A stretch of DNA of 64,000 nt from Terriglobia bacterium (lineage in GTDB: Bacteria; Acidobacteriota; Terriglobia; Terriglobales; Acidobacteriaceae), in assembly GCA_963698825.1 (NCBI GenBank), contig CAVOSG010000007.1:150548-214547 (forward strand). The letters are read 5' to 3'. This document shows positions 8,547 through 47,617 of this stretch, in pieces. The translations under genes and the position numbers were made by a program. Positions within the stretch are counted from its first letter, which is position 1, and each line of letters opens with the position of its first letter. The notes below the pieces were generated by a model. That model was not told the origin of the DNA. It did not search any database and was given only the letters and a program-made list of their open reading frames with translations.

Positions 8547-8651
8547 CCAGTTTCTGGTTTCTGGTTTCGAGATCTGATAGTCTGAAGTCAGAAAGCTTGC
8601 CGGAAATTGGATATCGAAACTAGAAATTGGAAACCAGAATCTAGAAACCAG
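8547..8651. repeat. Inverted repeat built from tandem heptamers (TTCTGGT x3 / GAAACCAGA) flanking an approximately 60-nt loop
   Basis: ccagTTTCTGGTTTCTGGTTTCgag ... ggAAACCAGAatctaGAAACCAGttctc. Confidence 0.6.
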
Positions 8652-8658
8652 TTCTCAG

Positions 8659-9898
8659 TTATTCGTATCTTAGGGCTTCGATCGGGTCCAGCTTGGCTGC
8701 TTTGATCGCGGGCAGCATGCCGCTGACGATCCCCACAAAGCTCAGAATGCCGGTGGACCAGATCAGCGTAGCGGCATCGATGGTCAGATGAATGTCGCCT
8801 TCGTCGGCATCCTCTTCAAAAGCGCTCCAGAGCGTCAACGAAGGCACGGACCACGAAACCAGATAGGCGAATGCCACTCCCAGCAGTCCGCCGAGCGCGG
8901 TAATGACCAGGGCCTCGGCCAGGAACTGGAACAGGATGTGCCAGCTCTGGGCGCCCAAGGCTTTTTCCACGCCGATTTCACGGGTACGCTGGGTCACCGC
9001 CACCAGCATGATGTTCATCAGTCCCACTCCGCCAATACCCAGCGTCAGCAAGCCGATAAAACCCAGCAGCACCTTGATGCCGGTGGTGATGACTTCCAGA
9101 TCAGCCAGGTCTGAGAACACATCGAAGATGAAAATCGCCCGCTCGTCCTTGGGATCGAAGTCGTGATGAAACGCCATGGAATGACGCAGCGGCTTCGACC
9201 ACTTTCATATGGTCGCCCTCATATTCCATGACGATGGAGTTCAGGTAGTAGGTATCTTTCAGATCGCTCATCGCGCTGTAGGGCACGTACACATGCTCAT
9301 TCAGATTGTCGTCGCTGTTGTTGATCACGTGCTTCAGAACGCCGACGATTTGGTAGGAAATGCCGTCCACGCGAATACTTTCCCCGATGGCATTCTGGCC
9401 GGAGAACAGCTTTTTCTTGACGTCCGCGCCGATAAACGCCACACGAGTGTGGGTAAAATCCTCAGCCTCGCTGAAGCGACTCCTTCGGCAAATTCCATGC
9501 GGCGCATGCGCGGATAAATCGCGTAGACCCCGCTCACCCCATAGCTGGCGCTCCGCGTCCCGTAGGCGACCGCGCACTGTTTGAAGACCTCAGGCGAGAT
9601 TCGCTTCAGCAAAGGCACTTCTTCACGAATGTATTCCAGGTCGTTGATCGTCAGCTTGACTTCACTTCCGGCCTTGGTGCCGCCGGCCTGGTGCGAAGTC
9701 CGTCCGGGAAACACGAAAACCAGGTTCGTCCCAAAGGATCGAAACGCAGCCCATCAAGCCGCGTTCGAAGCCCGACCCGTAGGCCAGCAGCAAAACCACC
9801 GTGGCAATGCCCCACGCCATGCCCAGCATGGTAAGGGCGCTGCGGCGCTTGTTGAACCGCAGCGCGCTGTAGGCTTGGGTTCCCAGATCTTGAATCAT
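8659..9898 (-). pseudogene. MacB-like ABC transporter permease (FtsX family), broken by at least 3 frameshifts
   Basis: Four consecutive minus ORFs in different frames cover one gene. These are 9662..9898 (N-terminal TM, LRFNKRRSALTMLGMAWGIATVV), 9334..9714 and 9101..9577 (MacB periplasmic domain), and 8659..9177 (FtsX C-terminal TMs, VAVTQRTREIGVEKALGA). Confidence 0.6.
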
Positions 9899-9902
9899 CG
9901 GA

Positions 9903-11150
9903 TTACTCCTGCCTCATGGCTTCCACCGGAACCATCAGCGCCGCTTTTCGCGCCGGATAAATTCCCGCCATGATGCCCGCAATCGCCAGCGAAAAAATTG
10001 CCGCCAGTGCCGACATCGGCACAATCCGCGGCGTATCGAATCCCTGCGGCGAAGGCAATTGTCCCAACAGAGTCATGAATCCGCCCGCAATTAAAAGCCC
10101 GATCCCTCCGCTGAACATCGTCAGAAACATGCCTTCAATAAAGAACTGCGTCAGAATATTGCGATGGGTGGCGCCCAACGCCTTGCGCAGGCCAATCTCC
10201 CGCGTTCGCTCCGTGACCGAAACCAGCATGATGTTGACAATGCCGATCGCTCCCAGCCCCAGCGTCACAAATCCCACGACCCCCAGAAAATAGTCCATGG
10301 CATCAAAAATCTTGCCCACACGCTGCGAGTTCTCAATCGTGTCCCAGTCCTCAAACGCATCTTCCAGCTTGGGATCGAAACCATGGCGGCGGGCGATGAT
10401 CTGATGGACTTCCTCTTTGGATCGCAGGTGCTGGGCTTTATCCAGCGGCCGGTAGTTAATGAACGAGACCGCGTTCTCCGCGTTCTCCTGCTTCAATGGA
10501 AACAGGTCGCGCATGGTTTCGACCGGAACAAAGATGCGCGCGTTCGTGCCGTTGTTGCCGTCCTGTCCCACCTTCGCCAGCACCCCGATCACGTCAAAAC
10601 GAACTCCGTTGAGCAGCAGCGTGGCCCCCACGGCTGGCCGTCCCGGGAACACATTCTTCAGCAGTTCCCACCCCACCACCGCCACCCGGCGATGTTGCGT
10701 GTTGTCGTCCTCATTGAACCAGCGGCCGGTGCCGATGGGCATCGTGCGAATCTGGTTATAGTCCGGAGCCACGCCAAAAACCTGGCCATTGGTGGACCCA
10801 TAGTCGCTGACCGCGCGGATGTCCTCGCGATTGATCACTGGTGAGATCACGCGCAACGTGTGCGCCTCATCACGAATCGCCAGATAGTCGTCGTAGGTGA
10901 AGTGATAGGTCTGCCCGGATTGCTGGTTTCCCGCCACCGCCGGAATCCGCCCCGGGAAAATAAACATGATGTCCTGGCCAAGGGTTGCCAGTTGCTTCAC
11001 CTGGCCGCTGCGGAAACCTTCCCCCAGACCCACCAGAAGCAATAACGAGCCCACGCCCCACGCAATCCCGAACATGGTCAGGAACGAACGCAGCTTGTGC
11101 GCCCACAGGGTGGCCAGCGACTGGCGAACGATATCGAGAAGCGTTCTACA
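9903..11150 (-). CDS. MacB-like ABC transporter permease (FtsX family), intact. N-terminus extends upstream of the first ATG (11075) with no canonical start found.
   Basis: 390-aa ORF with FtsX C-terminal module VSVTERTREIGLRKALGA. The frame remains open upstream (..LLDIVRQSLATLWAHKLRSFLTMFGIAWG) to about 11150. Confidence 0.7.
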   Translation of the reverse strand, partial: CRTLLDIVRQSLATLWAHKLRSFLTMFGIAWGVGSLLLLVGLGEGFRSGQVKQLATLGQDIMFIFPGRIPAVAGNQQSGQTYHFTYDDYLAIRDEAHTLRVISPVINREDIRAVSDYGSTNGQVFGVAPDYNQIRTMPIGTGRWFNEDDNTQHRRVAVVGWELLKNVFPGRPAVGATLLLNGVRFDVIGVLAKVGQDGNNGTNARIFVPVETMRDLFPLKQENAENAVSFINYRPLDKAQHLRSKEEVHQIIARRHGFDPKLEDAFEDWDTIENSQRVGKIFDAMDYFLGVVGFVTLGLGAIGIVNIMLVSVTERTREIGLRKALGATHRNILTQFFIEGMFLTMFSGGIGLLIAGGFMTLLGQLPSPQGFDTPRIVPMSALAAIFSLAIAGIMAGIYPARKAALMVPVEAMRQE

Positions 11151-11420
11151 TGGTCCCCTATGGGGGCGCGGGCGTCCACGCTCGTGCTCTCCTGCACGTC
11201 TTACGCATTTAGCCCCCGGAGAGTTCGCGTCAAGTTCCCTCGATGTTGCTTTTCAATCACTTGGACTGGGTTCAGGGCAAAAGGATAGCCGCTCATCTTT
11301 CAGCCGACCCTCTGTCCGTTTTTTACACTGCTATCCAGACGTTTGTCTTCCCGTCTAAACGCTCGTTCTTTAGCGCAGGTCCGGCTTTCTCAAAAACAAT
11401 TCGAAGCGGAGGGCTGTTCA

Positions 11421-12486
11421 ATGTTTAGACCGCTTGCGCGTGCTGTGTTAGTTCGAAGGTTTTGCTGCTGTTGGCGTCCTGGGTCAGGCCCAGTCTTTTA
11501 TTCTTGAACTGCCACGGCCCAGTCAGCATGCTGTCATCACCCAGCGCATGGGCATCACCGATATCACCATCAACTACCACCGTCCCCTGGTGAACAAGCG
11601 CGAAGTTTGGGGCGGAACTCGTGCCCTACGGTCAAGTGTGGCGGGCCGGAGCCAACGAAAACACCACCATCAAGTTTACTGATCCCGTAACCATCGAAGG
11701 CAAACCCTTGCGAAAGGCGATTTACGGCCTGCACATGATTCCCGGTGAGAGCGAGTGGACCGTTATTTTCTCCAAAGCTCACACCTCTTGGGGCAGCTTC
11801 ACCTACAACCAGGCCGAGGACGCGCTGCGCGTCACCGTGAAACCGCACTCCGCGGAATTCCACGAAGCCTTGACCTATGACTTCGATGAGGTAGAGCGGA
11901 TTCCGCCGTGGTCACACTGCGCTGGGAGAAGATTGCGGTTCCCTTCAACGTCGGCGTGAAACCCACGAAATCGTGCAAGCCAGTCTGCACAGCCAACTCC
12001 ATGGGCTGTCCCAGTACACTGGGAAGGCTGGGACGACGCCGCCAACTACCTGCTGCCGGAAAAGATCGATCTGGACGAGGCCCTGAAATATGCGGAGCGT
12101 CGATCCAGAACGAAGAACGCTACGACAATCTCATGACCAAGTCGCAGATTCTCGACGCCCTGGGCCGCAAGGATGAAGCCACCACGGCGCGAAACAAAGC
12201 ACTCACCATGGCCAATGCCGTCCAGATCCACGGCTACGCTCGCCAGATGCAAATTGCCGGCAAACAGGATGAGGCGTTTGCCATCTATCGCGACAATGCC
12301 AAGAAGAACCCTGACTCAGTGGATTGTGCACGTGGGTTTGTCTCGCATGTATTCCGCGCAGGGCGACTTTGCCAACGCGGCCAAGGAGATGAACATGGCC
12401 GCTAGGCGGGAGCGCCCGATGGACAAAAACAGCCGTTACAGGCGTTCGCCAAGCGGCTGGAAGCGAAGGAGGATATCAATAAATAA
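11421..12486 (+). pseudogene. DUF2911-family secreted protein with C-terminal TPR-like region, broken by at least 6 frameshifts
   Basis: Fragments spread over three frames: signal peptide MFRPLARAVL..., then AVITQRMGITDITINYHRPLVNKREVWGG, then ELVPYGQVWRAGANENT...FSKAHTSWGSFTYNQAEDALRVTVKP, then ...RYDNLMTKSQILDALGRKDEA..., ending ...AKRLEAKEDINK*. Confidence 0.5.
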
Positions 12487-12498
12487 GGGTTTCGTAGC

Positions 12499-12599
12499 GC
12501 CGCCATCCCGGCGGCTGTCGTGTGGGCGCCCCGCCCACCCCGCCGAGAGGCAGCCCTCCGAGGGCGAGACGCCCTCGGGACGGCCGGCGAGACGCCGGC
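12499..12599. terminator. Cluster of four tandem GC-rich hairpins between convergent genes (DUF2911 and RES)
   Basis: gccgccATCCcggcggc; gtgggcgCCCcgcccac; ccgagggcgAGAcgccctcgg (9-bp stem); gccggcgAGAcgccggc. No U-tracts. Confidence 0.45.
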
Positions 12600-12641
12600 G
12601 CTACACATTCAGAGCTTTCGTTAGCACAGCTAAGAGCCAAC

Positions 12642-13112
12642 TTATCTCTTTCCCGCCAACCGCGGATCGAACTGAAAGTTCACGGGCTTGCCGAAGCGCA
12701 ACCTGGGGAAATCCGAGTGCGCCGGGTTAAGCAGAAAATTGCTTTCTCCTGGGATAAGGACACTCGGAACCTGGAGCACGGGTGAGCTTCCCGCAAGAAT
12801 CCAGTCGTCGCCAATGGACCGGACTTCCGGCGGTGCAGGGTCGGACCTCCAGTGCCTGGGCAGCACCGAGAGCTCAACCGGTCTGACCAGCGCCTGCTCG
12901 AACTCCACTTCGATCAATACGTACTTCTGCAGTAACTCCGACGAGTCGAGATGGACCAACATTTCGAGAGCAGCGAGCGATTGTGACTGTGCGGCGTAAA
13001 CGACGGCGGTTCCAGGATTGTTCCACCGACCGCCAAACTCGCGCGCGCCTTCCCCGGTAAACGCATCCCTGGCATGCTTTCGTTTGGTAATGCGCCAGGC
13101 TGTGACAATCAC
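12642..13112 (-). CDS. RES-domain toxin (Xre-RES / MbcT-like type II TA)
   Basis: 156 aa. R...E...S signature (ARDAFTGEGAREFGGRWNNPG...AAQSQSLAALEMLVHL). Overlaps the upstream antitoxin gene by 4 nt. Confidence 0.75.
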   Translation of the reverse strand: MIVTAWRITKRKHARDAFTGEGAREFGGRWNNPGTAVVYAAQSQSLAALEMLVHLDSSELLQKYVLIEVEFEQALVRPVELSVLPRHWRSDPAPPEVRSIGDDWILAGSSPVLQVPSVLIPGESNFLLNPAHSDFPRLRFGKPVNFQFDPRLAGKR

Positions 13113-13588
13113 GAAAAGATTCCGTGCTCCAGCCGTCCGATCAGGTTTTCGACCTCGCGGGCTCCGGGCTCGGTGCGAGCGTAGGTTAGCGGAGGACGAT
13201 CGCCCAGCGCCTTCCGGGGCGTAGTCAGCCAGTTCACGGCGGCCGCCACATCGCCTTCAAATAGATCGACTGCATCTTCGAATACGGCGGAGATGCGGAG
13301 CAGCCGTTCGGATTCTTCCGGAGTCAATCTGCGGGAAACCTTGCGCCGGGCCAGGGTTCGCTCGGGAATTCCCAGAATATCGGCCAGCCGCGTCAGTGCC
13401 AGACCGCTGCAGGATTCGAGGGCTTGCAGGGTCTTAAAGGAGAACCCACGTTCCAACTGTCGAATAAGTTCGTCAGAGTTGGCCGCGGTCAGGCCGAGCG
13501 TCCTCCCACGCAATCGGAATCGGACCGAATGGCGAGATGAACCTGGCCGAGCCGCCGCAGTTGGCCGGTTTAGCGGAGTATGACCCAC
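13109..13588 (-). CDS. Xre-family antitoxin with DUF2384 toxin-binding domain (ParS/MbcA-like). True start probably internal, at about 13500.
   Basis: LALTRLADILGIPERTLARR HTH followed by TPEESERLLRISAVFEDAVDLFEGDVAAAVNWLTTPRKALGDRPPL. Positioned directly 5' of the RES gene. Confidence 0.65.
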   Translation of the reverse strand: MGHTPLNRPTAAARPGSSRHSVRFRLRGRTLGLTAANSDELIRQLERGFSFKTLQALESCSGLALTRLADILGIPERTLARRKVSRRLTPEESERLLRISAVFEDAVDLFEGDVAAAVNWLTTPRKALGDRPPLTYARTEPGAREVENLIGRLEHGIFS

Positions 13589-13599
13589 GGTTCAAGTCT

Positions 13600-13660
13600 A
13601 TAAGGGGATCTGCCATATTGTCAAATATCTACTGCCAAGTGGCAGAGGTCAGATCGACTC
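13600..13660. promoter_or_regulatory. Nested palindromes (GATCTG...CAGATC; CTGCCAagTGGCAG) upstream of the Xre-RES operon; candidate operator
   Basis: Seen directly at 13607-13655, within 70 bp of the antitoxin ORF start. Confidence 0.35.
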
Positions 13661-14226
13661 GGGGCAGGAGTCCTGGGTGACGATTGTCTCTTTCCCCATG
13701 CGCCGGCCTACTGCAATCGCTGCAGCGAGAGTTGCTTCGTCCGTTTCCCGTCCGCGAATGATTTCCAGTCTCTTCTCGCTTTCAATCGGCTCCAGGAAGC
13801 GCATGCCCAGACAATTTTTGGCACGGTAGGTGACGCGGGAAATCTCGGTGATGCTGAGCGAGGAAAGATGAGATGCCAGGATCGTGCCCGGACGGCAAAT
13901 CTTGTCAAGCAGGGTGAAAATCTCGAGCTTCGATTCCAGTTCTTCGGGGACCGCTTCGATCACCAGGTCGGCCTGGCGGGCGGCGTCTTCGACGCTGCCG
14001 GCAAATTCCAGCTGGGAGAATGCGGCCTGGGCTGCATCCGCGGAGACCCCGCCTGACTCTACGGCCCGGCCCAGATCCGATGCGAATTTCGCTCTCGGCC
14101 CGGCGCAGCGCATTGGGCAGCAGATCTTCGAGAATGGTGCGATAACCGCCTCGGGCCGCCAACTGGGCGATGCCTCGGCCGACTCGGCCAGCGCCGATGA
14201 CGGCGATGGTCCGCACGTCAGGCGCT
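13649..14226 (-). pseudogene. 3-hydroxyacyl-CoA dehydrogenase NAD-binding domain gene: one frameshift and no C-terminal dimerisation domain
   Basis: VRTIAVIGAGRVGRGIAQLAARGGYRTILEDL (in ORF 13905..15449) then ADLVIEAVPEELESKLEIFTLLDKICRPGTILAS.SSLSITEI...GKETIVTQDS then stop (ORF 13649..14113). Expected PGFVVNR... continuation is absent in all frames. Confidence 0.5.
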
Positions 14227-14236
14227 ACCCCGGCCA

Positions 14237-14422
14237 CTACTGCCCCTTTTCCAGTTGTCCCAGGACAGCATTCAGGTTGGTGCTGGCGGAGCGAATATTT
14301 TCGGCGAGGCGCTTGCGCTCCTCTGCTTCCATCAGTGGGATGGAGGCGCTGATGCGGCGGAGCGTGGTGTTGATGTCGTCGACGTAGTTGATGAGACGGA
14401 TGAGTTCTCCCGTAGCTGCCAT
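14237..14422 (-). CDS. Small hypothetical alpha-helical protein (61 aa)
   Basis: ORF with good RBS (caGGAGcaggtttaactATG). No family recognised. Confidence 0.35.
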   Translation of the reverse strand: MAATGELIRLINYVDDINTTLRRISASIPLMEAEERKRLAENIRSASTNLNAVLGQLEKGQ

Positions 14423-15660: not shown

Positions 15661-16155
15661 ATGCTTCGCGACAAGAACCTTATTCCTCTTTCCCACCAGC
15701 ACCAGCATTGCCTGGCGTTGTGTGTGCGACTGGATCGAGCCATCCAGGCGGGCGAGGTCGATCCCGAAGCGTGGCAGGCTGAGATCCAGCAGATCTTTGA
15801 GCAGGAAATCTCATTTCATTTTGCCGCCGAAGAAAAAGAATTGTTTCCCGTGGCCGCGCGCTACCCCGAACTGCAACCTCTGGTCCAGGAACTGCTGACC
15901 GGACACGTTTTGCTGCGTGATTTCTTCTCTCGCGCGGCCGCCCGCAAATTGCATGTAGCCGGCTTACAGGCTTTGGTCGAAAAACTGGCATCCCACATTC
16001 GCAAGGAAGAACGCGAGCTGTTTGAGGGCATGCAGCGCCTGATGCCGCCGGAAGAGCTTGCGGTGGTGGGCGCCGCGCTGCAGCAATCGCTGGCAGACGC
16101 TTCGAATGCATGCATTCTGCAGAATGCGGCTACGCGGCTGCGCCCCAAGCAGTAG
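15661..16155 (+). CDS. Hemerythrin-like (HHE cation-binding) domain protein
   Basis: Repeated H..xE...ELFP motifs (HFAAEEKELFP, HIRKEERELFEG). Confidence 0.65.
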   Translation: MLRDKNLIPLSHQHQHCLALCVRLDRAIQAGEVDPEAWQAEIQQIFEQEISFHFAAEEKELFPVAARYPELQPLVQELLTGHVLLRDFFSRAAARKLHVAGLQALVEKLASHIRKEERELFEGMQRLMPPEELAVVGAALQQSLADASNACILQNAATRLRPKQ

Positions 16156-16169
16156 TCCTTTCATCAGCC

Positions 16170-16236
16170 CCTGTCATCCTGAGCGCAGTATGCACTTCGC
16201 GAGGCGAAGCAATCCCTCCGCTCAGGATGGCACGGG
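16170..16236. repeat. GTCATCCTGAGCG...CGCTCAGGATGGC hairpin element (copy A of a dispersed repeat family)
   Basis: tGTCATCCTGAGCGcagtatgcaCTTCGCgaggCGAAGcaatccctcCGCTCAGGATGgca. Outer 11-bp stem, inner CTTCGC/GCGAAG stem. Confidence 0.6.
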
Positions 16237-16285
16237 TTGAGGGATGCACCTGAATCCCAAACATTCTTTTGTTCATCTAGCAGAT

Positions 16286-17329: not shown

Positions 17330-17334
17330 GCGGG

Positions 17335-17424
17335 TGTGGCGCGGGCGCCCTCGCCCGCGTTCTTTCCCCCTAAATTAGGCCTGTGGAGCCTCGATCTTTC
17401 ACGCGGGCGAGGGCGCCCGCGCCA
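17335..17424. terminator. Perfect 24-bp GC-rich inverted repeat (GTGGCGCGGGCGCCCTCGCCCGCG) with 42-nt spacer, between convergent htrA and M20 peptidase genes
   Basis: 17335-17358 is the exact reverse complement of 17401-17424. Confidence 0.5.
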
Positions 17425-17435
17425 CACAACCATCT

Positions 17436-23571: not shown

Positions 23572-23843
23572 CAGCTGTCAGCTATCAGCTATCAGCCTGT
23601 CAGCTCTCAGCTTCTGGCTGCTAGCTTCTGGCTTCTGGCTCCGCCAAAAAAATCTGTCATCCCGACCGGAGCGAAGCGCAGCTACGCGCAGTGGAGGGAC
23701 CTTGTGTTTCGCGCCGAGAGCAGCGGCCTCAGGGTATGCCTCTCCCGAAAGAGCCTAGGTCATCCGCCAAGACACCTGCGCTAACTCATTCATCAGCGTC
23801 CCTTAAGTACTGACAGCTGAGAGCTGACAGCCGAGAGCTCCTC
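23572..23843. repeat. Composite intergenic element between rseP and ispG: heptamer tandem arrays (TCAGCTA/TCAGCTC/TTCTGGC units) in inverted orientation at both ends, flanking a degenerate GTCATCC-family core
   Basis: Left 23572-23641 cagctgtcagctatcagctatcagcctgtcagctctcagcttctggctgctagcttctggcttctggct. Right 23808-23843 tactgacagctgagagctgacagccgagagctcc. Core tGTCATCCcgaccgGAGCGAAGCGcagc at 23654. Confidence 0.55.
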
Positions 23844-23868: not shown

Positions 23869-25106
<1,238 letters not shown>

Positions 25107-29301: not shown

Positions 29302-30304
29302 ATGGCTCGGGTGGCGTGCTAAGCGGAGTCGAAGGACCACTAAGCGGACAATGATATATATCTTGATATACATCTTTTTGTTAGCTATCAAGGTATATAC
29401 CGAGAAAGCGGTTACCTATGCATCGTACCACCAAACTATTGCGGAACGGACGCAGCCGAGCCGTGCGCCGGCCTTCGGAGAACCGGAATTCAGGGCTCTC
29501 GAACTGTTGATACCGTCGCGCTGAGCACCGCCATCGGGGCGACGTTGCCTGTGCACCCCAGAGCCGGAATCTTGGCAGGACTTTTGTCATCCTTAGTGGA
29601 ACTCGATCACGAAGTGAGTGCAGAGTTCATAGCCGATCGGAGATGATCGCTCCGCCCAAGAAGCGAAAGTGCTCTAGCATGGTGCGGCTTACTGTGTCGC
29701 TGCGACACGAATACATGCCAGCTATGCCATCAAGGGCAACCATGCCAGCGTACGCGATCAGCTGTATGACACTCAGCTGTGGCTGACGAACGGCAATATT
29801 CGGTCATCACCGGAGATGAATGCGCTTCGGAATCGCCCGACTTGCCGGCAGCTGTCCCGTCTGAAAGGTCTGGTCAAGGAGTGCCTGCTGTCGAGTTGGC
29901 GTGAATTGCCCGATGGATCTCGTCGACTCGAACATCCCTCGCCGAGATATCGAGCTCCTCTCGGAACGATCATGGGAGCCCGATGGTCCTCATGGACATG
30001 TTGATCTCCGCGCACGCATTTGCCGCGGATGCCATACTGCGACACTCATAGACAGGGTGTTCCGGCGAGTCAAACGTCTCAAGATCGAGGACTGGAATAA
30101 TGCTGACGTTCAGGGTTGCGAATATGTGCGGCCCTCGAAGCAAAATAAGTCGCTGGCCAAATCGAAGGTAGGCTTTCTCGCAACAGTTGAGGGCCATGCA
30201 TATCCTTCCCCCCCGCCACCACAGGGATGGCCCGTGAATCCCACGCTTCGCAAAGTGCGCGAAGCATGGGGCACCCATCGTTTGTTTTTTAAGCGACTTC
30301 GCGT

Positions 30305-30964
30305 CTACGCTCCGCGCTTCGTCTTCAACTCCGCCAGCAACTGCTCGATGCGGTCTTCTTTTTCGAGGGCTGCTAAACGCTCTTCCACATCATCGGCGGC
30401 GATCTCGGATTTGGCCTGGCTGTGGGCGGCGGCGTGGGCGACTTTGCGCTTCATGCGATCGAAGGCGCTGGCGCTGGAACCGTTGCCTGCCGCCATCTTC
30501 GCGTCGCTGGCCTTGCCTACGGCGCGCGCCCGGCGATGCTGGGCGATCAGCAGGTCGGCCTTGGCCTGGGCTTCGGTCAGCTTCTGCTCGAGCTGGCGCA
30601 GCGCGATCTTCAGGTTCTCCACTTGGGCCTTCTGATCGGTTACCTGCTGCGCGAAGCCTTCGCTTAAGTCGCGATAGCTCTCCACGCGTTCGAGGGCGGC
30701 GCGGGCCAGGTCGTCTTTTTTCTTGTCCACGGACAATTCCGCCTTGCGCATCCACTCCGCGACTTTGTCTTCATTTTCCTTTTGCTTTTTTTCCAGCAGG
30801 TGCTGATCGGCAATGGCGATGGCCACCTGCGTCTTGACCTGCAGAAGCTGGTTCTGCATGTCGAGAATGACCTGCTTGATCATTTTTTCCGGATGCTCAG
30901 CCTTGTCGATCAGATCGTTGAGATTGGCCCGGACCAGTGTGGAAACTCGCTCTAGTAATGCCAT
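30305..30964 (-). CDS. pspA: Phage-shock protein A / IM30-family (PspA/Vipp1-like)
   Basis: 219-aa coiled-coil protein with MALLERVSTLVRANLNDLIDKAEHPEKMIKQVILDMQNQL, the canonical PspA N-terminus. Confidence 0.8.
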   Translation of the reverse strand: MALLERVSTLVRANLNDLIDKAEHPEKMIKQVILDMQNQLLQVKTQVAIAIADQHLLEKKQKENEDKVAEWMRKAELSVDKKKDDLARAALERVESYRDLSEGFAQQVTDQKAQVENLKIALRQLEQKLTEAQAKADLLIAQHRRARAVGKASDAKMAAGNGSSASAFDRMKRKVAHAAAHSQAKSEIAADDVEERLAALEKEDRIEQLLAELKTKRGA

Positions 30965-30974
30965 GATGGACTCC

Positions 30975-31012
30975 TTATTAGCTATCAGCCGTCAGCTATC
31001 AGCTTTCAGCTC
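30975..31012. repeat. Heptamer tandem array (AGCTATC AGCCGTC AGCTATC AGCTTTC) immediately upstream of the pspA RBS, with no inverted partner
   Basis: ttAGCTATCAGCCGTCAGCTATCAGCTTTCAGCTcgg. Confidence 0.55.
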
Positions 31013-37429: not shown

Positions 37430-37461
37430 GATCAGTCTCGAATTCCGCTACGCCTTGTATT

Positions 37462-38386
<925 letters not shown>

Positions 38387-38561
38387 TGGCCTTCGGTCGT
38401 TGGTCGTTGGCCATTCCTCGTCGGTCATTCTTCATTTGCTGGCTTCACTTGCTGGCTGGCAAATCATCCACCTGAATTCCGGCTCCGGCTGGTTGCTTTA
38501 CTCTTCTTCTTCAACCTTTTCTTGTTTTCAACATCAGTTTTCGGTTCTTTGTTCCCGGTTC

Positions 38562-39923
38562 TCAGTCGCCGGCTTGGGTGACGGCTTTGGACTCCAGTTT
38601 TTCAACCCTGACTTTGGCGATGCGGTGGCCTTCGATCTCCTGGACGGTGAAGCGGTGGCCCTCGTATTCGAAGGTTTCGTTCTGTCTGGGGATTCTCTGC
38701 AGGCGGGCCAGAATGAAGCCGGCCAGAGTCTCGAAGCCGGAATCGCGCGGCAGCGAAAGTTGATACTGCGACTCCAGATCACGAATGCTGACCGAGCCTT
38801 CGAGCACGACCGCGATCTCACCTTCAACCAGGGCCTGCTGGGGCGGCGCGATATCGAATTCATCTTCTATTTCGCCGACTATCTGTTCCAGAACATCTTC
38901 GACCGTGATCACGCCCGCAGTGGAGCCGAACTCGTCCACCACCACCGCCAGATGGCGTTTTCGTTCCTTGAACTCTTGCAACAATTCAGTGAGGACCTTG
39001 GTTTCGGGAACGACCAGCACGTCGTGCATGATCTGGCTGATTTTCATCGTGGAGACTCGCGCCGCGGCCGGCTGGTCGGTGAGCCGGAGGCGGGTCCAGC
39101 GCATCATGTCTTTGGCATAGAGGACTCCGACAATGTGCTCCGGTCCCCGCTGCGGGTCGTAGACCGGGACTCGCGAATGCTGTTCCTCGACCACCCGGGC
39201 CAGCGCGTCGGAAATCGTAAGATCGCCGGGCAGAGAGAAAATGGCGGGGCGCGGCACCATGACCTCGCGCACGGTGATGTTGTCCAATTCCAGGGCATGA
39301 TGGATCATTTCTTCCTGGAATGGCGGAATCTCACCGAACTGCCGGCTGGCGGTCACGATCAGCTTGAGCTCATCGGGCGAGTGCACCGGCCCTTCCCGGA
39401 TGCGGCGCGAGCCCAGGGCGCGCAATACCCAGCCCGCCGCCCGGCTCATGACGTAGAGCAAGGGACGGGTTAGGGTGAGGAAGACATCCATCGGCGCCGC
39501 CACCGCAAGCGCCACTTGCTCGGCGCGCTGCAAGGCCAGCGACTTGGGAACCAGTTCGCCCAGGATGACGTGCAGGCAAGTGATCAGGCCGAAGGCGATG
39601 AAAATCGCAATCCCGTGCGCGTACACCGAGGCATGGGGAACGTCCTGAACCGGACCGAGCATCATTTGCGCCAACAGCGGCTCGCCCACCCAGCCCAGGG
39701 TCAGGCTGACGATGGTGACTCCCAACTGAACGCCGTTGACGACTTCATCCAGATTGCGGTGCAGCTTCTGCACGATACGGGCGCCGATGCGCCGGGCGGC
39801 GATCAATTGCTGAATACGGGTATCACGCACGCTCACCAGGGAGAATTCCGCGGCGGCGAAGAAAGCGTTGGCCGCTACCAGGAGCAGGATGAGGAACACC
39901 CGCAGCAGCACGTAGGCAATCAT
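38562..39923 (-). CDS. HlyC/CorC-family (CNNM) transporter: DUF21 + CBS pair + CorC_HlyC
   Basis: AAAEFSLVSV...ITCLHVILGELVPKSLA DUF21 region, CBS pair, C-terminal transporter-associated domain. Confidence 0.8.
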   Translation of the reverse strand: MIAYVLLRVFLILLLVAANAFFAAAEFSLVSVRDTRIQQLIAARRIGARIVQKLHRNLDEVVNGVQLGVTIVSLTLGWVGEPLLAQMMLGPVQDVPHASVYAHGIAIFIAFGLITCLHVILGELVPKSLALQRAEQVALAVAAPMDVFLTLTRPLLYVMSRAAGWVLRALGSRRIREGPVHSPDELKLIVTASRQFGEIPPFQEEMIHHALELDNITVREVMVPRPAIFSLPGDLTISDALARVVEEQHSRVPVYDPQRGPEHIVGVLYAKDMMRWTRLRLTDQPAAARVSTMKISQIMHDVLVVPETKVLTELLQEFKERKRHLAVVVDEFGSTAGVITVEDVLEQIVGEIEDEFDIAPPQQALVEGEIAVVLEGSVSIRDLESQYQLSLPRDSGFETLAGFILARLQRIPRQNETFEYEGHRFTVQEIEGHRIAKVRVEKLESKAVTQAGD

Positions 39924-41419: not shown

Positions 41420-41435
41420 TTCCATAAAGGAAGGA

Positions 41436-41497
41436 AGCTCTCAGCTCTCAGCCATCAGCCCTCAGCTAGGATGTGGACACCGATAGCTGATAGCTTA
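41436..41497. repeat. Heptamer array AGCTCTC AGCTCTC AGCCATC AGCCCTC with short inverted partner gatagctgatagct
   Basis: Seen at 41436-41468 and 41483-41497, immediately 3' of the adaptor gene. Confidence 0.5.
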
Positions 41498-41550
41498 CTC
41501 ATAGGTCAATCCTCCGGGCACCACCACTTGACTCAGTCTTTGGAGAAAAC

Positions 41551-42552: not shown

Positions 42553-42631
42553 AAGGCTTCAGTCGTCGGTCGTCAGTCGTCGGCAAATCCCAACCAGAAC
42601 CGTAGGACTGCTGACGACTGACGACTGAAGG
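42552..42631. terminator. Heptamer-array inverted repeat (CAGTCGT CGGTCGT CAGTCGT / ACGACTG ACGACTG) directly after the DUF4097 gene stop
   Basis: gaaggcttCAGTCGTCGGTCGTCAGTCGTCGG ...26 nt... CTGACGACTGACGACTGaaggc. 22-bp near-perfect stem. Confidence 0.55.
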
Positions 42632-42732
42632 CTGCAGACTGCCCCCTCCGTTACCTCCGTTCCTTGACTCTGCCTTTCTGACAGGTTACTTTCGGTTTTT
42701 CCAGGGATTATTCTGTCTGGAGCGAGGATCCA

Positions 42733-43563
42733 TTGGCGCACCGTCCAATCATCACGCTGACTACCGACTTTGGGCTCAACGATCACTTCGTGGGCACGAT
42801 CAAGGGCGTCATTCTCAATATTGTTCCCGAAGCCGAGATCGTGGACATCAGCCATTCCGTGCAGGCGTTCGACGTGCTGGATGGCGCGCTTACGATCGCG
42901 CAATCGTATTCCTATTTCCCCACGGGCACCGTGAATCTGGTGGTAGTGGATCCGGGCGTGGGAACGGCGCGGCGGCCCATCCTGGTCAGCAGCGACCGGC
43001 ATCATTTTGTTGCGCCCGACAACGGCGTGCTCTCCATGGTCTACGCCCGGGAAGAGCGATTGCACATCCGTCATGTGACCGCCGAGCACTATTCCCTGCA
43101 GCCGGTGAGCAACACCTTCCATGCGCGCGATATTTTTGCGCCGGTCGCGGCCTGGCTGGCCAAGGGAGTGGACTCGGAAAAATTCGGCGATGAGATCACC
43201 GACTTCGTCCGCTTCAATCCGCCCAAGCCGAAATCGGTAAACGGCAACACCCTGCGCGGCGTGATCCTGAAAGTGGACCGCTTCGGCAACCTGGTGACCA
43301 ACATTACGCCTCAGGACGCACCCATGCTTTTCGCGGCCGAACCGGCGCCCTTCAAGATGGTGGTGGGCAAGCACGAGATTACGGCAATCCTGCCCAACTA
43401 CTCCGAGGGTTCGCCGGGAGAAGTCTTCGGAATCCTGGGCAGCATGGGCTACCTGGAAATCGCTGCCAATCGCGGTTCCGCAGCGAAGATTATTGGGAGT
43501 GGCAAAGGCAGCGAAGTGACCATCTCACTCGAAGGCGCGGCCGCCGCCGGCAACGGGAACTAG
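42733..43563 (+). CDS. SAM hydroxide adenosyltransferase / SAM hydrolase family protein (DUF62)
   Basis: IITLTTDFGLNDHFVGTIKGVI N-terminal motif and overall DUF62 architecture. Confidence 0.7.
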   Translation: MAHRPIITLTTDFGLNDHFVGTIKGVILNIVPEAEIVDISHSVQAFDVLDGALTIAQSYSYFPTGTVNLVVVDPGVGTARRPILVSSDRHHFVAPDNGVLSMVYAREERLHIRHVTAEHYSLQPVSNTFHARDIFAPVAAWLAKGVDSEKFGDEITDFVRFNPPKPKSVNGNTLRGVILKVDRFGNLVTNITPQDAPMLFAAEPAPFKMVVGKHEITAILPNYSEGSPGEVFGILGSMGYLEIAANRGSAAKIIGSGKGSEVTISLEGAAAAGNGN

Positions 43564-43583
43564 GCTCTTAAGAAATCAGGAAC

Positions 43584-43602
43584 CGCGGGCGGGTCGCCCG
43601 CG
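43584..43602. terminator. GC hairpin CGCGGGCG-ggt-CGCCCGCG between convergent genes
   Basis: Perfect 8-bp stem. Confidence 0.4.
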
Positions 43603-43622
43603 ACCACACCACCACGCTTCTA

Positions 43623-43937
43623 CTAGGATCGCTTCTGCGCGGGATGAACGTAACGTTCTATCTCTCCCGTCCATTTCAGAAAGCGCCAGAGGTTATCGCG
43701 CTCCCTCCACATGAACTCCCAGAATTCGAGGAAGCCGATCTGCTGCATCTTGACCCCGCAGTAGGTTTCGACCCGCCACAGCAGATAGGGGCTGCGCCAG
43801 GGGGTAAGGCGATGGCCGCGGGTCGCGTTCCAGATGAATCGAAGCATGGGCGCATCGTTGTTCGTCAGTATAACGCTCGTGACCATAAGGCTCCGCTCTC
43901 GTGGTCCTCGATCGGTCTCGGGCGGTATTTCGGACAA
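43623..43937 (-). CDS. Hypothetical conserved W-rich small protein
   Basis: ORF with LTPWRSPYLLWRVETY...FLEFWEFMWRER segment. No family assigned. Confidence 0.35.
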   Translation of the reverse strand: MSEIPPETDRGPRERSLMVTSVILTNNDAPMLRFIWNATRGHRLTPWRSPYLLWRVETYCGVKMQQIGFLEFWEFMWRERDNLWRFLKWTGEIERYVHPAQKRS

Positions 43938-43996
43938 CCAGTTGATCAGTCTCTAGTTCCCGGTTCTCAGTTAGGACCTGTTAAGATTTCCGCTTC

Positions 43997-44344
43997 ATGA
44001 CCGACGACGCCCGCCAGAAAGCCGAAGACCACTACTACGCCGCGCTCGATCTGGTCGCGGAGGGCGAACAGGAGCGTGCTCTGGCGGAGTATCAAAACTC
44101 CCTGGCCGCCGATCCTGATTTTACCGAGGCCATGCACGGCATGGCCCGCACTCTCCAGGATCTCAATCGCCTGGATGAAGCCATCACCGTGGCCAAGCGA
44201 ATCGCCGAACTTGATCCCGACGATGTGCTGGCCCATACCAGCCTGTCCGTTCTCTACCAGAAAAAGGGCATGATTCCGGAAGCCGAAGCCGAAGCCAATA
44301 AGGCTCGTGTGCTGGGGTGGAAGCAGCAATTGAAGAAGACCTAG
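43997..44344 (+). CDS. Tetratricopeptide-repeat protein (115 aa)
   Basis: Three TPR-like units (ALAEYQNSLAADPDF..., AMHGMARTLQDLNRLDEAI, AKRIAELDPDDVLAHTSLSVLYQKKG). Confidence 0.55.
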   Translation: MTDDARQKAEDHYYAALDLVAEGEQERALAEYQNSLAADPDFTEAMHGMARTLQDLNRLDEAITVAKRIAELDPDDVLAHTSLSVLYQKKGMIPEAEAEANKARVLGWKQQLKKT

Positions 44345-44441
44345 CTCTCAGCCGTCAGCTATCAGCTCTCAGTAAAAGCCCGAATAAGTTATCGCCGCGA
44401 TGGTTTGGCTGAAAGCTGAGAGCTGACGGCTGAGAGCTCAG
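44344..44441. terminator. 30-bp heptamer-array inverted repeat (AGCTCTC AGCCGTC AGCTATC AGCTCTC) between convergent TPR gene and pilR; overlaps the pilR stop
   Basis: agctctcagccgtcagctatcagctctcag ...35 nt... ctgaaagctgagagctgacggctgagagctcag. Confidence 0.6.
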
Positions 44442-45826
44442 AGTTCGTACTTCTTCGCCAAATGCCGGAAGGAACGATAGGAAATTTTCAGCACTTCCGC
44501 CGCGCGGGTCTGCACTCCATTGGATTGCGCCAGCGCGGCCAGCAGCAGCGAGCGCTCAATGTCGGCGACGTACTTCTCCATGTCCAGGCCTTCCGGTAAG
44601 ACCGAGCCGGAAGCGATCGAAGGCGCGCCTCCCACGCCGGCCGCCGCAGCCCGCGCTTTGGACCGTTCCGCGGGAAGCTCAACCGTCAGTTCTTCTCCGG
44701 TCTCCAGGGCGACCGCCCGCTCGATGGTATTTTCCAGCTGGCGCACATTGCCCGGCCAGTCGTAGCCGCACAGAGCGTCCAGCGATTGCGCATGCACCCG
44801 CGCGATGGCCTTGCCGGCCGCCGGAGCATATTTCTTGAGGAAGTGGTTCACCAGCAGCGGAATGTCTTCGCGGCGCTCCCGCAACGGCGGAACCGAAACC
44901 GGAATCACGCTCAAGCGGTAATACAAGTCTTCGCGGAAAGTATTTTCGGCCACCTGCTTATCGAGATCGCGGTTGGTGGCGGCGATCACGCGCACATCAA
45001 TGGGAATCTCGGTCGTGCCGCCCACGGGCCGCACGCTGCGCTCCTGCAATACGCGCAGCAGCTTGACCTGCATGGTCAGCGTCATCTCGCTGATTTCGTC
45101 CAGGAAGATGGTTCCCTGGTCGGCCACTTCAAACAAGCCGCGCTTGTTCTGGTTGGCGCCGGTGAAGGCACCCTTCACGTAGCCGAAGAGTTCGCTCTCC
45201 AGCAGGGTTTCGGGAAAGGCCCCGCAGTTGATGGAGACGAACGGCTCGCTGGCGCGGGGCGAACATACATGCACCGCGCGAGCCACGAGCTCCTTGCCGG
45301 TACCGCTCTCGCCGTAGATCAGGATCGTACTTTGCGTGGACGCCACGGTGCGAATGGTCTGTTTCAGCTTTTCCATCGCCGGGCTCGCGCCGACGATGTT
45401 GTCCAGCGAATTGCGGGTTGCGGCATCGCGTTTGAAGGCAAAATTCTGCCGGCTCAGCGTCATCTTCTCCAGGGCGCGATTGATGGCGAGTTTGATCTCG
45501 TCCACCAGCCCGGGGGACTTGCGGATGTAGTCGGTCGCTCCGCCCGCTTTGACCGCTTCGACGGCGGCTTCATAGTCATCGACTGCAGTGATCAGAATGA
45601 CTGCGGAATCGGGCGAGACCTGGTGCGCATAGCGCAGCACTTCGATGCCGTCGGTATTCGGCATCTTGATATCGGTCACGACCACGTCGTAGATCGCGCT
45701 GTCGAGCTTCTTCTTCGCAACCTCGCCGGAGTTGACGGTTTCGACCTTGTGGCCGTCGCGGCGCAGGGCGATATCGAGCATTTCGCAGATGGAGCGCTCG
45801 TCATCGCAAACCAGGATGTTACCCAT
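44438..45826 (-). CDS. pilR: Sigma-54-dependent Fis-family response regulator (NtrC-like; PilR by context)
   Basis: REC (DDERSICEML...D), AAA+ sigma-54 activator (GESGTGKE...GAFTGA...ESELFGY), C-terminal Fis HTH. 462 aa, intact. Follows pilS in a pilB-T-C-S-R block. Confidence 0.8.
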   Translation of the reverse strand: MGNILVCDDERSICEMLDIALRRDGHKVETVNSGEVAKKKLDSAIYDVVVTDIKMPNTDGIEVLRYAHQVSPDSAVILITAVDDYEAAVEAVKAGGATDYIRKSPGLVDEIKLAINRALEKMTLSRQNFAFKRDAATRNSLDNIVGASPAMEKLKQTIRTVASTQSTILIYGESGTGKELVARAVHVCSPRASEPFVSINCGAFPETLLESELFGYVKGAFTGANQNKRGLFEVADQGTIFLDEISEMTLTMQVKLLRVLQERSVRPVGGTTEIPIDVRVIAATNRDLDKQVAENTFREDLYYRLSVIPVSVPPLRERREDIPLLVNHFLKKYAPAAGKAIARVHAQSLDALCGYDWPGNVRQLENTIERAVALETGEELTVELPAERSKARAAAAGVGGAPSIASGSVLPEGLDMEKYVADIERSLLLAALAQSNGVQTRAAEVLKISYRSFRHLAKKYEL

Positions 45827-47529
45827 GCGCTTTACCTCCGTCCCAGCCGCGGCCGCAACGCCTTCCCTTGCCTCGGGAAGGAACTGGGGTTGCGCGACCG
45901 GCCGTTTCGCCGGTCAGGTTCTCGGCCATTGCCACCCGGCGCAGGCGAAGTACAAAGACGCTGCCTTCTCCCAACTTGGAGCGGGCCCAAACCTTGCCTT
46001 CATGGGCCTGCACGATCTGGTACACGATGGCGAGGCCCAGTCCGGTGCCGCCTTCAAACTGCGACTGGAAGGGCTCGAAGATTTTCTCCACCAGCTGGCG
46101 GCTCATGCCGGGGCCGGTATCGGCAAAGTTGATTTGCCAGTCCTCTCCACCTGCTCCAGCGAGACGCGAAGCACTGCCTCCCGAAACCATGGCGCGCACG
46201 GCGTTCTCGCAAAAATTCCAGAACACCTGTTTGATCTTGTCGCCGTCGGCCAGGGTCAAGGCTTGTTCGAAGTTATAGTTCCGCTCGATGCGGATTCCGG
46301 TGTTCTCCGTCACCAGCCGGTGCTCCAGCAGAGTCAGCGTGTCTTCGAGCAGGGGCAACAGGTCGACGGTGGCGAATTGATATTGTTTGCCGCGGGAGTA
46401 CGCCAGAAAGTCGGTGATGATGCCGTTCAGGCGCTCCGACTCGCGGGTCACGATCTGCAGCAACTGGCGGTGCTCGTCGCTCAGGTCGGCGATGCCGGAG
46501 AGCATGCTCACCGAGCCGGCGATCGAGGTCAGAGGATTGCGGATTTCGTGGGCGATGGCCGCAGCCAGCCGTCCCACGGCCGCCAGGCGGTCCTGCATGC
46601 GCACTTCCCGCTCCAGGCGGCGGATTTCGGTCAGATCATCGAAAGTGTAGACGTAGCCAATCGTCTTTTTGCCGGTCACAGCGAGCGAGGTCGCCATCAC
46701 GCGAAGAGTCTTGCAGAAACCATTCGAGGCAACGAAGCGGACTTCTCCGTGGGTACGCTCCGAATCAGCCGTGGGCAAGGGGTCGAGGAAGAGCTGGGCA
46801 CGGGCTGACCCAGGAAATCACCCTCGGAGCGCTCCAGCAACTTCTGCGCCGCCGTGTTCGCCAGCGTGATATGGCCGTCCAGCCCGGTGGTGATCAGTCC
46901 GCCGCTGATGGACTGAATAATGTTTTCATGCAGCGCCTGCAGGTCTTCCAGCGCCCCGCTGGTGTGCTTCAGCTTTACATCGACCTGGCGCAGCTTGGCC
47001 GCCAGCAATCCCGCCAGATAGGCCACCGCCAGGTAGCCAAACAGATTGACGAAGATGATGGCCTGCAGGGCACCGAGCCCGGGATGCGTAGTGGAATACG
47101 AAGGAATGACTTCGAAGTACGTCAGCTCCAGGACGGCACCATACAGGATGAACGCCAGCGCCGCGGTCAGATACGCCCAGACCCGGGGCAGCAGGATGCA
47201 GGCCACGATGATGACCAGGGGATAGAGAAAGTTCAGCGAACTGTCAACGCCGCCGGTGGCGTAGACCACCAGCGTGACCATCACCAGGTCGGTGATGACT
47301 TGCAGGAGCGACTGGATGCGGCGTTCCTCCCAGAAGGAAAGCAGCAGACGTAGAAAACCGAAATCGTGTACCAGAGCAGAATGACGTTGATGAACAAACG
47401 CAGCGGAGAACGGATTGGGCGTGAGCCGGGCAATGGCCAGTTCAATGCCCAGCAGAAAGGTCAGGATAAGATGCGGACCTTGACCAGCCAGGCCAGCCAA
47501 AGCCGCTCATCGAACATGGATTGCATGCG
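45819..47529 (-). pseudogene. pilS: PAS-domain sensor histidine kinase (PilS-like by context), 2-3 frameshifts
   Basis: N-terminus MQSMFDERLWLAW then, in another frame, AGQGPHLILTF...multi-TM...IIQSISGGLITTGLDGHITLANTAAQKLL (PAS; ORF 46697..47500). Then HisKA/HATPase (AHEIRNPL...GTGLGLAIV; ORF 45819..46778). Confidence 0.65.
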
Positions 47530-47547
47530 AGACCCGAATCCTGAATG

Positions 47548-47617
47548 CTCGGTCGTCAGTCGGCGGTCATCAGCCTTCAGAGAGTGCTGAAGACCGATGA
47601 CCGACGACTGACGACTG
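47548..47617. repeat. Heptamer-array inverted repeat (CGGTCGT CAGTCGG CGGTCAT / ATGACCG ACGACTG ACGACTG) between pilC and pilS
   Basis: ctCGGTCGTCAGTCGGCGGTCATCAGccttcag agagtg ctgaagaccgATGACCGACGACTGACGACTG. Confidence 0.55.

Follow-up and report, generated by a model that had tools for sequence, protein, structure and literature searches.

Paired inverted heptanucleotide arrays at gene ends in Terriglobia: predicted hairpins with a fixed arm polarity

Background

Intergenic heptanucleotide arrays have been known since the short tandemly repeated repetitive (STRR) sequences of cyanobacteria, and their function is not established in the literature cited here. The STRR units are CCCCAGT (STRR1), TTGGTCA (STRR2) and CAACAGT (STRR3). 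The present analysis concerns a family of intergenic arrays with a 7-nt period, most of them paired as inverted arms of predicted hairpins, in a 64,000-nt stretch of a Terriglobia bacterium of the phylum Acidobacteriota (assembly GCA_963698825.1, contig CAVOSG010000007.1, positions 150,548 to 214,547), hereafter called the window. In common with STRRs, these arrays consist of tandem 7-nt units, are intergenic, occur at many loci per genome and have no assigned function, and the main unit, when written CGTCAGT, shares its CAGT end with STRR1 and STRR3. The unit sequences nevertheless differ, as no rotation or reverse complement of the consensus units matched an STRR unit, and STRRs are found in heterocystous cyanobacteria whereas the host here belongs to the Acidobacteriota. 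Most of the arrays described here are also short (3-6 units), form complementary inverted arms with a fixed polarity, and abut stop codons. An earlier sequence-only reading of the window had called them STRR-like, a description that stands for their form (tandem heptamers, intergenic, above chance) and fails for unit, host and layout.

The closest match is a set of paired heptamer sites in Geobacter metallireducens, catalogued as class 3 predicted global regulator binding sites (Gmet_I301-I308) and read by their authors as sites for a regulator of the IHF/HU type (Aklujkar et al. 2009, PMC2700814, Additional file 9). As the class 3 passages of that paper describe them, these sites resemble the present arrays in being paired runs of about five tandem heptamers on opposite strands, 75-115 nt apart, in intergenic DNA with site A 3' of one gene and site B 5' of the next, and in the CTGA ending of their unit (MTYCTGA). 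In 8 of 8 Geobacter pairs the first arm on the + strand is of the TCAG type, which is the polarity found here. Paired inverted arrays (118 hairpins, median loop 40 nt) and an outward NNNCTGA polarity were both present in our material. When the MTYCTGA unit was looked for, a CYGA core was found with the other three positions mostly CGA or AGA rather than MTY, in a logo with some circularity, the motif itself having served to set the register. The catalogue gives ATT or CTC at unit positions 1-3, as against CGA, AGA or NAG here, and 8 pairs per genome, as against roughly one per 5 kb here; the phylum differs, and the class 3 passages make no mention of hairpin pairing, slippage or adjacency to stop codons. 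The earlier statement that heptamer repeats of this kind occur mainly in cyanobacteria does not hold, since heptanucleotides were the commonest long simple sequence repeats (SSRs) in most of the SSR-rich genomes surveyed by Mrazek 2007 (as cited in MacGregor 2015, PMC4679880) and paired arrays are known in Geobacter (PMC2700814).

Two further systems bear comparison. TAACTGA direct repeats occur in marine Beggiatoaceae, Cyanobacteria and Bacteroidetes (MacGregor 2015, PMC4679880). They too are intergenic heptamers ending in CTGA, and their 'forward' copies lie just upstream of start codons, as does the array at 30976-31011 upstream of pspA; in the BOGUAY genome, however, 169 sets are direct and 1 is indirect, and the repeats lie mostly at ribosome-binding sites, not after stops, with no hairpin predicted (PMC4679880). 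Repetitive extragenic palindromic (REP) sequences, bacterial interspersed mosaic elements (BIMEs) and REPINs are, like the present family, abundant extragenic palindromes found mostly between co-directional or convergent genes, downstream of coding regions (PMC3733652, PMC3116915). They often form inverted dimers that fold into larger hairpins, and mRNA stabilisation, termination and supercoiling have been proposed as their roles. REPs have 5-13-bp stems with an unpaired GTAG or CGTC tag, and many are tied to RAYT transposases, whereas the stems here are 20-35 bp of tandem heptamers with slippage-variable copy number. Dispersed post-gene palindromes were found here, with the TCAGCNN family at 4 sites within the window. 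An unpaired GTAG or CGTC tag was not found: the stems run to the stop codons and CGTC occurs only inside the repeat GTCGTCAG. TIRYT genes have been reported in cultured Acidobacteria (Di Nocera et al. 2013, PMC3733652) and serve here as a lead only. A literature search returned no paper on these repeats in Acidobacteria, and the repeat sequence itself gave an unrelated primer match only.

Paired heptamer arrays are a previously described kind of repeat. In genomic behaviour the hairpins resemble REP, BIME and REPIN elements. The reading favoured here, at a probability of roughly 0.5, is that they are REP-like extragenic palindromes with heptamer arms, which transcripts would carry as 3' stem-loops and which slippage would reshape in 7-nt steps, while selection or arm-to-arm correction would keep the arms complementary.

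Results and discussion

Self-similarity in the window was scanned at lags 4 to 15 (match +1, mismatch -2, score at least 10) and compared with 30 dinucleotide-preserving shuffles. Twelve period-7 segments were found, against a mean of 0.20 in the shuffles, and none at periods 4, 5, 8, 10 or 11, period 14 being a harmonic of 7. All 12 lay in intergenic DNA, which makes up about 15% of the window in a gene map based on GC content at third codon positions. Period 7 thus exceeds both shuffled sequence and other short periods, as the sequence-only reading had supposed. Tandem Repeats Finder reported period-7 arrays starting at 8550, 23572, 23610, 23810, 30976, 38395, 41436, 42562, 42611, 44343, 44408 and 47587, so that every locus listed earlier proved to hold a real heptamer array, a CTTTGCG element aside. 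That list had overlooked a hairpin at 822-921, and it had placed the second copy of a 16-mer, GTTCCCGGTTCTCAGT, at 43946; the copy begins at 43956, and both copies lie inside unpaired 7-periodic arrays. No Rfam family was found in the whole window at gathering thresholds, and an E-value scan of 41-48 kb gave a spurious mir-512 match only.

For comparison, 80 related 20-kb loci (1.48 Mb in total) were retrieved via the SAM hydroxide adenosyltransferase gene at 42733-43563. All are from metagenome-assembled genomes (MAGs) of Acidobacteriota, nearly all Terriglobia/Terriglobales, the best at 97% amino-acid identity. They contained 195 period-7 tracts, against 1-8 for each of periods 4, 5, 8, 10, 11 and 13, and tract density was highest in the closest relatives. 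Hairpins were present in short-read as well as long-read assemblies, in MAGs with differing contig-naming styles and in contigs from the Joint Genome Institute and other metagenomes, and an assembly artefact was therefore ruled out.

Arrays were found at orthologous sites in many relatives: 23 of 54 at site H (42557-42630), 28 of 72 at site I (43940-43975), 44 of 72 at site J (44343-44438) and 31 of 74 at site K (47552-47615). At site G (41436-41497) and at a further site, X, they were rare (3/56 and 4/73). The comparison of orthologous regions that the sequence-only reading had proposed thus reveals fixed sites as well as sporadic ones. At site J the unit family varies by species (TAGTCGT, TCAGCNN, TAGCTNC/TGGCTNC or GGTCGTT), and the opposite arm matches each time. 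In a plain MAFFT alignment of 16 sequences over a 16-pair helix at this site, 90.8% of cells were paired, compared with 78.2% in shuffles (0/500 as high); 57 cells had changed on both sides, compared with 23 in shuffles, and 14 of the 16 pairs included such two-sided changes. Slid controls were at most 51% paired. Own-arm pairing also exceeded that of arms swapped between species (0.66 against 0.59, permutation p<1e-4), with arms defined from the arrays, as arms defined by minimum free energy were too noisy, their folds running into coding sequence. The comparison of relatives shows that the predicted heptamer hairpins are passed down at the same intergenic positions in different Terriglobia species, that their arms stay complementary while the sequence is replaced, and that 7-nt units are gained and lost.

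Indel lengths between close relatives peaked at 7 nt (29 indels, compared with 20 of 6 nt and 4 of 8 nt), with a further peak at 14 nt, and two loci whose neighbouring gene is 99.6% identical differed by two units in one arm alone. Together these observations support slippage in 7-nt steps, and the common generating mechanism suggested earlier gains support from the indel peaks. Four different sites share an inner-stem motif, GGATTGGCTGA, which was counted 20 times (0.7 expected). Within the window the TCAGCNN family is present at four sites, including site G, where most relatives have no array, so some spread or exchange between sites is likely.

An inverted partner was found within 400 nt for 167 of 207 tracts. 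The resulting 118 distinct hairpins have stems with 25 matched bp at the median, and their loops have a median length of 40 nt (interquartile range 19-94). Inverted arms were confirmed in the window at 822-921, 8545-8646, 23574-23831, 42557-42630, 44343-44438 and 47552-47615. The inverted-arm layout described earlier thus applies to most tracts, but three window arrays (30976-31011, 38530-38566 and 43940-43975) are unpaired and that at 41436-41497 is partly paired. When the intergenic regions with paired loci were folded on the + strand, as had been recommended, z-scores were -8.0 for 44345-44437, about -4.5 for three regions and -2.7 for two, in keeping with stable structures.

The dominant unit, CTGACGA or TCGTCAG on the other strand (CAGTCGT and ACGACTG being rotations), accounted for 84 of the 207 tracts. 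The unit families share a skeleton, with YYNYYRG ('TCRG') in the 5' arm, as in TCGTCAG or TCTCAGC, and CYRRNRR in the 3' arm, as in CTGACGA; at site J one G:C pair per 7 nt is invariant. Whichever strand is read, the pyrimidine-rich TCRG array forms the 5' arm (64:2) and the CYGA array the 3' arm (78:2), and neighbouring arrays no more than 400 nt apart followed the order TCRG then CYGA in 65 cases and the reverse in 7. The earlier view that the units share only their period and layout is refuted by this common skeleton and fixed polarity. Inversion of a palindrome leaves its polarity unchanged, and so descent of whole hairpins or a functional constraint is needed.

An independent sample was obtained by scanning metagenomes for (CTGACGA)3, which gave 120 loci of 35-71% GC. 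Among the 104 arrays with adequate flanks, the complement lay 5' in 34 and 3' in 1, and 69 were unpaired. One paired example was on a contig encoding a protein with a T9SS sorting domain and another on a contig with a MYXO-CTERM protein; judged from these marker domains rather than from taxonomic assignment, the unit and its polarity therefore probably also occur outside Acidobacteria. No clear rule tied polarity to the adjacent gene, as unpaired (CTGACGA)n arrays abutted gene ends on either side (12 versus 19). Distances from such arrays to the starts of open reading frames (ORFs) are confounded, the array carrying stops in all three frames, and a register test with shifts of +/-7 was not counted as evidence, being biased by a best register picked beforehand. 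Longer versions were seen in metagenome contigs L096 (4890-5070), L128 (9380-9530) and L161 (15-217); two form hairpins, about 12 heptamers making up each arm in one of them, and that of L161 is a single 29-unit array at a contig end.

In gaps between co-directional genes, the stem base lay at a median of 7 nt past the stop of the upstream gene and 37 nt ahead of the following start; it was closer to the stop in 57 cases and to the start in 9. Where genes converge, the stops of both were overlapped by the hairpin (median -4 and -2 nt). The stop TAG at site J itself opens a unit (TAGTCGT, TAGCTCT), and the array supplies the final two or three codons (GSR*, GSS*). At site H the hairpin ends just ahead of a conserved promoter-like block. 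The location mostly at gene 3' ends noted earlier is borne out by these medians and by the convergent overlaps, although some hairpins lie in divergent promoter regions; in the relatives, conserved -10 or extended -10 boxes immediately flank the two arms at site I on the outside. The 10 nt after the stem held a mean of 2.9 T, with at least 6 T in 7% of cases, which confirms the absence of a U-tract that had been noted. In the first 20 kb, consensus terminators were not enriched (15, with 19.4 expected).

Mismatches within the stems carry a strand signal. In tandem-gene contexts, transition mismatches gave G·U on the sense strand in 79 cases and on the antisense strand in 47 (binomial p=0.0055), and 31 against 11 when counted per hairpin. 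The direction was the same at the large sites (14 vs 6 at H, 26 vs 9 at K), and the counts were balanced in convergent and divergent contexts. As far as sequence comparison can tell, the sense-strand excess points to a constraint acting on the transcript.

Under the reading of REP-like palindromes given above, transcripts of the upstream gene or genes would carry the hairpin at their end, where it would fold into a 20-35-bp stem-loop. This would behave like a REP or BIME, blocking 3' exonucleases and serving as a point of factor-dependent termination or of insulation ahead of the next promoter; because the hairpin abuts the stop codon, terminating ribosomes would affect its folding. The 7-nt period would reflect growth and shrinkage of an arm by replication slippage of one unit, complementarity being restored by selection on pairing or by template switching from arm to arm. 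Copies at new sites would arise by spread of whole palindromes, and arm polarity would therefore be preserved.

Several points weigh against this reading. Termination, processing and stabilisation are all roles that we infer. The related loci are orthologous and hence not independent, and their shared ancestry weakens the argument from G·U, the excess of which could also partly be a transcription-associated C>T bias. About 11% of stem positions are mismatched, transversions making up about 40% of the mismatches, and about one fifth of the arrays are without an inverted partner. Strict polarity and an invariant G:C pair per 7 nt are not accounted for by a plain stem-loop role. Hairpins occur in truly divergent regions, namely at site I in about 20 relatives (between the gene for a 74-aa protein and a TPR gene) and at 822-921 in the window (between MFS transporter and cyaY genes); such hairpins are probably not transcribed as a whole, and an RNA role therefore cannot explain everything. 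As to spread, no excess of TCRG...CYGA pairs at 0.4-3 kb spacing indicated autonomous elements with these ends, no target-site duplication was visible at filled versus empty sites G and J, no terminal tag was found on the stems, and no transposase was noted in the 64-kb window or the 20-kb loci, to which the data were limited.

The hairpins might instead be non-functional, self-propagating DNA, in which slippage-prone heptamer palindromes expand wherever they are tolerated, 3' ends being the least harmful place, and complementarity is kept by quasi-palindrome template switching, not by selection. Fast array turnover with often unequal arms, extension of arrays into the last 2-3 codons to supply the stop (GSR*, GSS*), hairpins in divergent promoter regions, and loss or decay at site I in the window, with a minimal 20-nt palindrome in L001, would all suit such an origin, as would the rank of heptamers as the commonest long SSR class (Mrazek 2007, per MacGregor 2015). 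Arrays nevertheless stay at the same orthologous sites across many species, the G·U enrichment is specific to the sense strand, and polarity and CTGA core are kept across distant lineages where neutral de novo origin predicts 50:50; we regard this explanation as possible but unlikely. The omega repressor of pSM19035 binds heptad arrays cooperatively on oppositely oriented arms, and a nucleoid-associated protein or global regulator could likewise bind the 7-bp units of oppositely oriented arms at the DNA level. The C/G core every 7 bp, invariant across unit families, the fixed arm orientation, the unpaired arrays and the hairpins in untranscribed divergent promoter regions, where they overlap -35 positions, are what such binding would produce, and the paired sites of Geobacter metallireducens were so read by their authors (PMC2700814). 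A binder of double-stranded DNA, however, needs no mirroring of variable positions from arm to arm, yet two-sided compensatory changes are abundant; neither the sense-strand G·U bias nor the tight link to stop codons would be expected of regulator sites, and no candidate protein was identified. Binding at the DNA level is accordingly judged improbable as the explanation of the family.

A third possibility is a protein-gated attenuator, in which the pyrimidine-rich 5' arm would offer a row of 7-nt landing sites, one for each oligonucleotide-binding (OB) fold of a protein that binds single-stranded RNA, for instance a cold-shock protein, whose binding to the nascent arm would block folding and allow read-through. 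Bacillus subtilis CspB occupies a heptanucleotide, a site size that would match the period, and its preferred sequence is the pyrimidine-rich 5'-GTCTTTG/T-3', in which position 3 is C and positions 2, 4 and 6 are T (PMC1904285); cold-shock proteins are described as transcription anti-terminators (PMC7704496), and the 5' arm is always pyrimidine-rich and transcribed first. Read directly, GTCAGTC, GTCTTCA and the TCTTTG of the CTTTGCG element partly fit this preference, but the likeness is a resemblance only: the most conserved positions (TCAG) fit the CspB consensus only in part, unpaired arrays in 5' leaders are purine-rich (30976-31011, and the TAACTGA repeats of PMC4679880), and divergent-region hairpins stay unexplained, which makes the attenuator distinctly doubtful. 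A broader proposal, equally speculative, is that the polar heptad hairpin (YYNYYRG)n-loop-(CYRRNRR)n is a conserved regulatory device in several phyla, seen in Acidobacteriota and Geobacter and probably on Myxococcota-like and Fibrobacteres-Chlorobi-Bacteroidetes (FCB)-like metagenome contigs; 7 nt would be the length of nascent 5' arm covered by a single OB-fold or cold-shock-type domain, and the protein would compete with folding and so set read-through or RNA stability at gene ends. Canonical Rho-independent terminators, a function offered earlier, would account for stable stem-loops directly past stops and between convergent genes, but canonical termination is very unlikely because there is no U-tract (mean 2.9 T in 10 nt, at least 6 in only 7%); stems of 20-35 bp (typically about 25) and loops of about 40 nt are far off the norm, and the hairpins in divergent regions fit no terminator model. 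Least credible of all are outward-facing promoter elements, with CTGACG units acting as -35-like hexamers (TTGACA) for flanking genes: CTGAC matches TTGAC at 4/5 bases, the CYGA arms always read outward to the flanking genes and both arms at site I have conserved -10 or extended -10 boxes immediately outside them, but site H has a separate conserved TTGACT -35 downstream of the array, the spacing from array to -10 is inconsistent between relatives, and between convergent genes such promoters would yield antisense RNA only. Repeats also occur on the T9SS-domain contig, and its host, if one of the Bacteroidota or a relative, would presumably use different promoters. The -35 idea was set aside for the inconsistent spacing and the separate -35 of site H.

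Should the REP-like palindromes act on transcripts, they would be the main gene-end signal of a major soil phylum seemingly poor in canonical terminators; if they do not, they would be palindromic satellite DNA shaped by slippage in compact genomes, rewriting last codons and stops. The device based on cold-shock or OB-fold proteins, if true, would be the first mechanistic explanation for cyanobacterial STRRs and related heptamer repeats. With about one hairpin per 5 kb, the window and its relatives offer a dense and comparatively tractable case, in which the rule of polarity and the link to stop codons are the most useful new starting points.

Array loci in the window

Hairpin J (44343-44438, z=-8.0) has arms AGCTCTC AGCCGTC AGCTATC AGCTCTC and their mirrored complement, and takes up the whole space between two convergent genes, the TPR gene (stop TAG 44342-44344) and a pilR-like one (stop 44438-44440), so that its stem base contains both stop codons. 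Hairpin K (47552-47615) has arms GTCGTCAGTCGGCGGTCATCAGCCTTCAG and CTGAAGACCGATGACCGACGACTGACGAC around a 6-nt loop; it starts 12 nt past the stop of a pilC-like gene (- strand, 47628) and ends 51 nt before the start of a pilS-like gene (47500). Hairpin H (42557-42630, z=-4.3), with a 5' arm of CAGTCGT/CGGTCGT units at 42557-42581 and a 3' arm of CTGACGA units at 42606-42630, lies between the stop of a DUF4097 gene (42552) and the promoter-like block of the SAM hydroxide adenosyltransferase gene. That block, GTTACCTCCGTTCCTTGACTC-N17-GTTACTTTCGG, is strongly conserved at 42640-42732 and at the same position in L001-L040, directly after the variable hairpin H.

At the left end of the window, hairpin A (822-921, z=-4.6) comprises the 5' arm GGGCGTC GGGCGTC AGACCTC GGACCTC at 828-857 and the 3' arm CGAGGTC CGAAGTC CGACGTC at 888-916, in the divergent region of the MFS transporter gene (-) and cyaY (+, ATG at 938). 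Hairpin C (8545-8651), just downstream of an FtsX-like gene (- strand, stop 8659), has a (GTTTCTG)n 5' arm at 8545-8574 and a (GAAACCAG/CTAGAAA)n 3' arm at 8610-8651. Hairpin D (23572-23839) lies between rseP (stop 23569) and ispG (start 23869), with a (CAGCTNT)5.7 5' arm at 23572-23612 and a CTGACAG/CTGAGAG 3' arm at 23810-23839; a second, unpaired array, (GCTTCTG)4.4, adjoins the 5' arm at 23610-23640. Its 214-nt loop holds another palindromic element.

Site G (41436-41497) begins 17 nt past the stop of an HlyD-family gene and consists of AGCTCTC/AGCCATC/AGCCCTC units at 41436-41467 with a short partial inverted partner, CGATAGCTGATAGCT, at 41481-41497. The unpaired array at 30976-31011 (- strand) reads (GCTGANN)5 on the pspA mRNA strand, directly upstream of an AAGGAG ribosome-binding site and the start codon (ATG at 30964). 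The region 38382-38566 holds two unpaired tracts of 7-nt periodicity, oriented alike, the first (38382-38430) of GGTCGTT type and the second (38530-38566) reading CAGTTTT CGGTTCT TTGTTCC CGGTTCT CAGTCGC, with the 16-mer GTTCCCGGTTCTCAGT at 38551; the second adjoins the stop of a CNNM gene (- strand, 38562). The site I array (43940-43975, + strand) is degenerate and unpaired, CAGTTGA TCAGTCT CTAGTTC CCGGTTC TCAGTTA, with the 16-mer at 43956, and lies in the divergent region of the conserved 74-aa gene (-) and the TPR gene. The 74-aa ORF (43623-43886, - strand) is 90-97% identical across relatives and has no Pfam match; it is taken to be a real gene because the overlapping + strand ORF is far less conserved.

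Other palindromes and gene models

The CTTTGCG/CGCAAAG palindrome upstream of fumC (3561-3675) is about 100 nt long; each arm has 4 motifs, spaced 9/13/9, with GGTCAAAATCTTTAACC in the middle. It had been counted as a member of the heptamer family, but its 9/13/9 spacing is not a period of 7, and it is a separate dispersed palindrome. Its centre, GGTCAAAGATTTTGACC, is conserved, clearly homologous copies occur at non-orthologous sites in other genomes, and copies are also nested in heptamer hairpin loops; the copies noted are in L024, L004-L006 (site G) and L006 (site H). The element behaves like a dispersed element of the REPIN or MITE type (MITEs being miniature transposable elements with inverted repeats).

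Another recurrent palindrome, GTCATCCTGAGCG...CGCTCAGGATG(AC), was seen at 16155-16249, at 23650-23700 in the loop of hairpin D, and upstream of the SAM hydroxide adenosyltransferase gene in L069 and L071. Further extragenic palindromes lie at 17334-17427, 12494-12604 and 52128-52382. Of these, one lies between convergent genes and has GC-rich arms of 27 nt that match perfectly, another is GC-rich with a period-11 GGCGAGACGCC repeat, and another has 40-nt arms, 95% complementary and 175 nt apart, each itself a hairpin.

No tRNA or tmRNA was detected in the window. Apparently frameshifted or truncated genes were seen at 23869-24965, 47628-48913, 45819-47500 and 8659-9177, the repeats being unaffected: IspG/GcpE is present as two overlapping ORFs, PilC as two T2SSF halves in separate frames, PilS as sensor and kinase parts in separate frames, and FtsX as its C-terminal domain alone (8659-9177). 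Long-read indel errors or pseudogenes are the probable explanation. Intergenic AT-rich direct repeats of 12 nt are found at 5776-5798 (AGTATATACATA x2) and 29352-29376 (TGATATA(T/C)ATCT x2) and may be operator-like sites.

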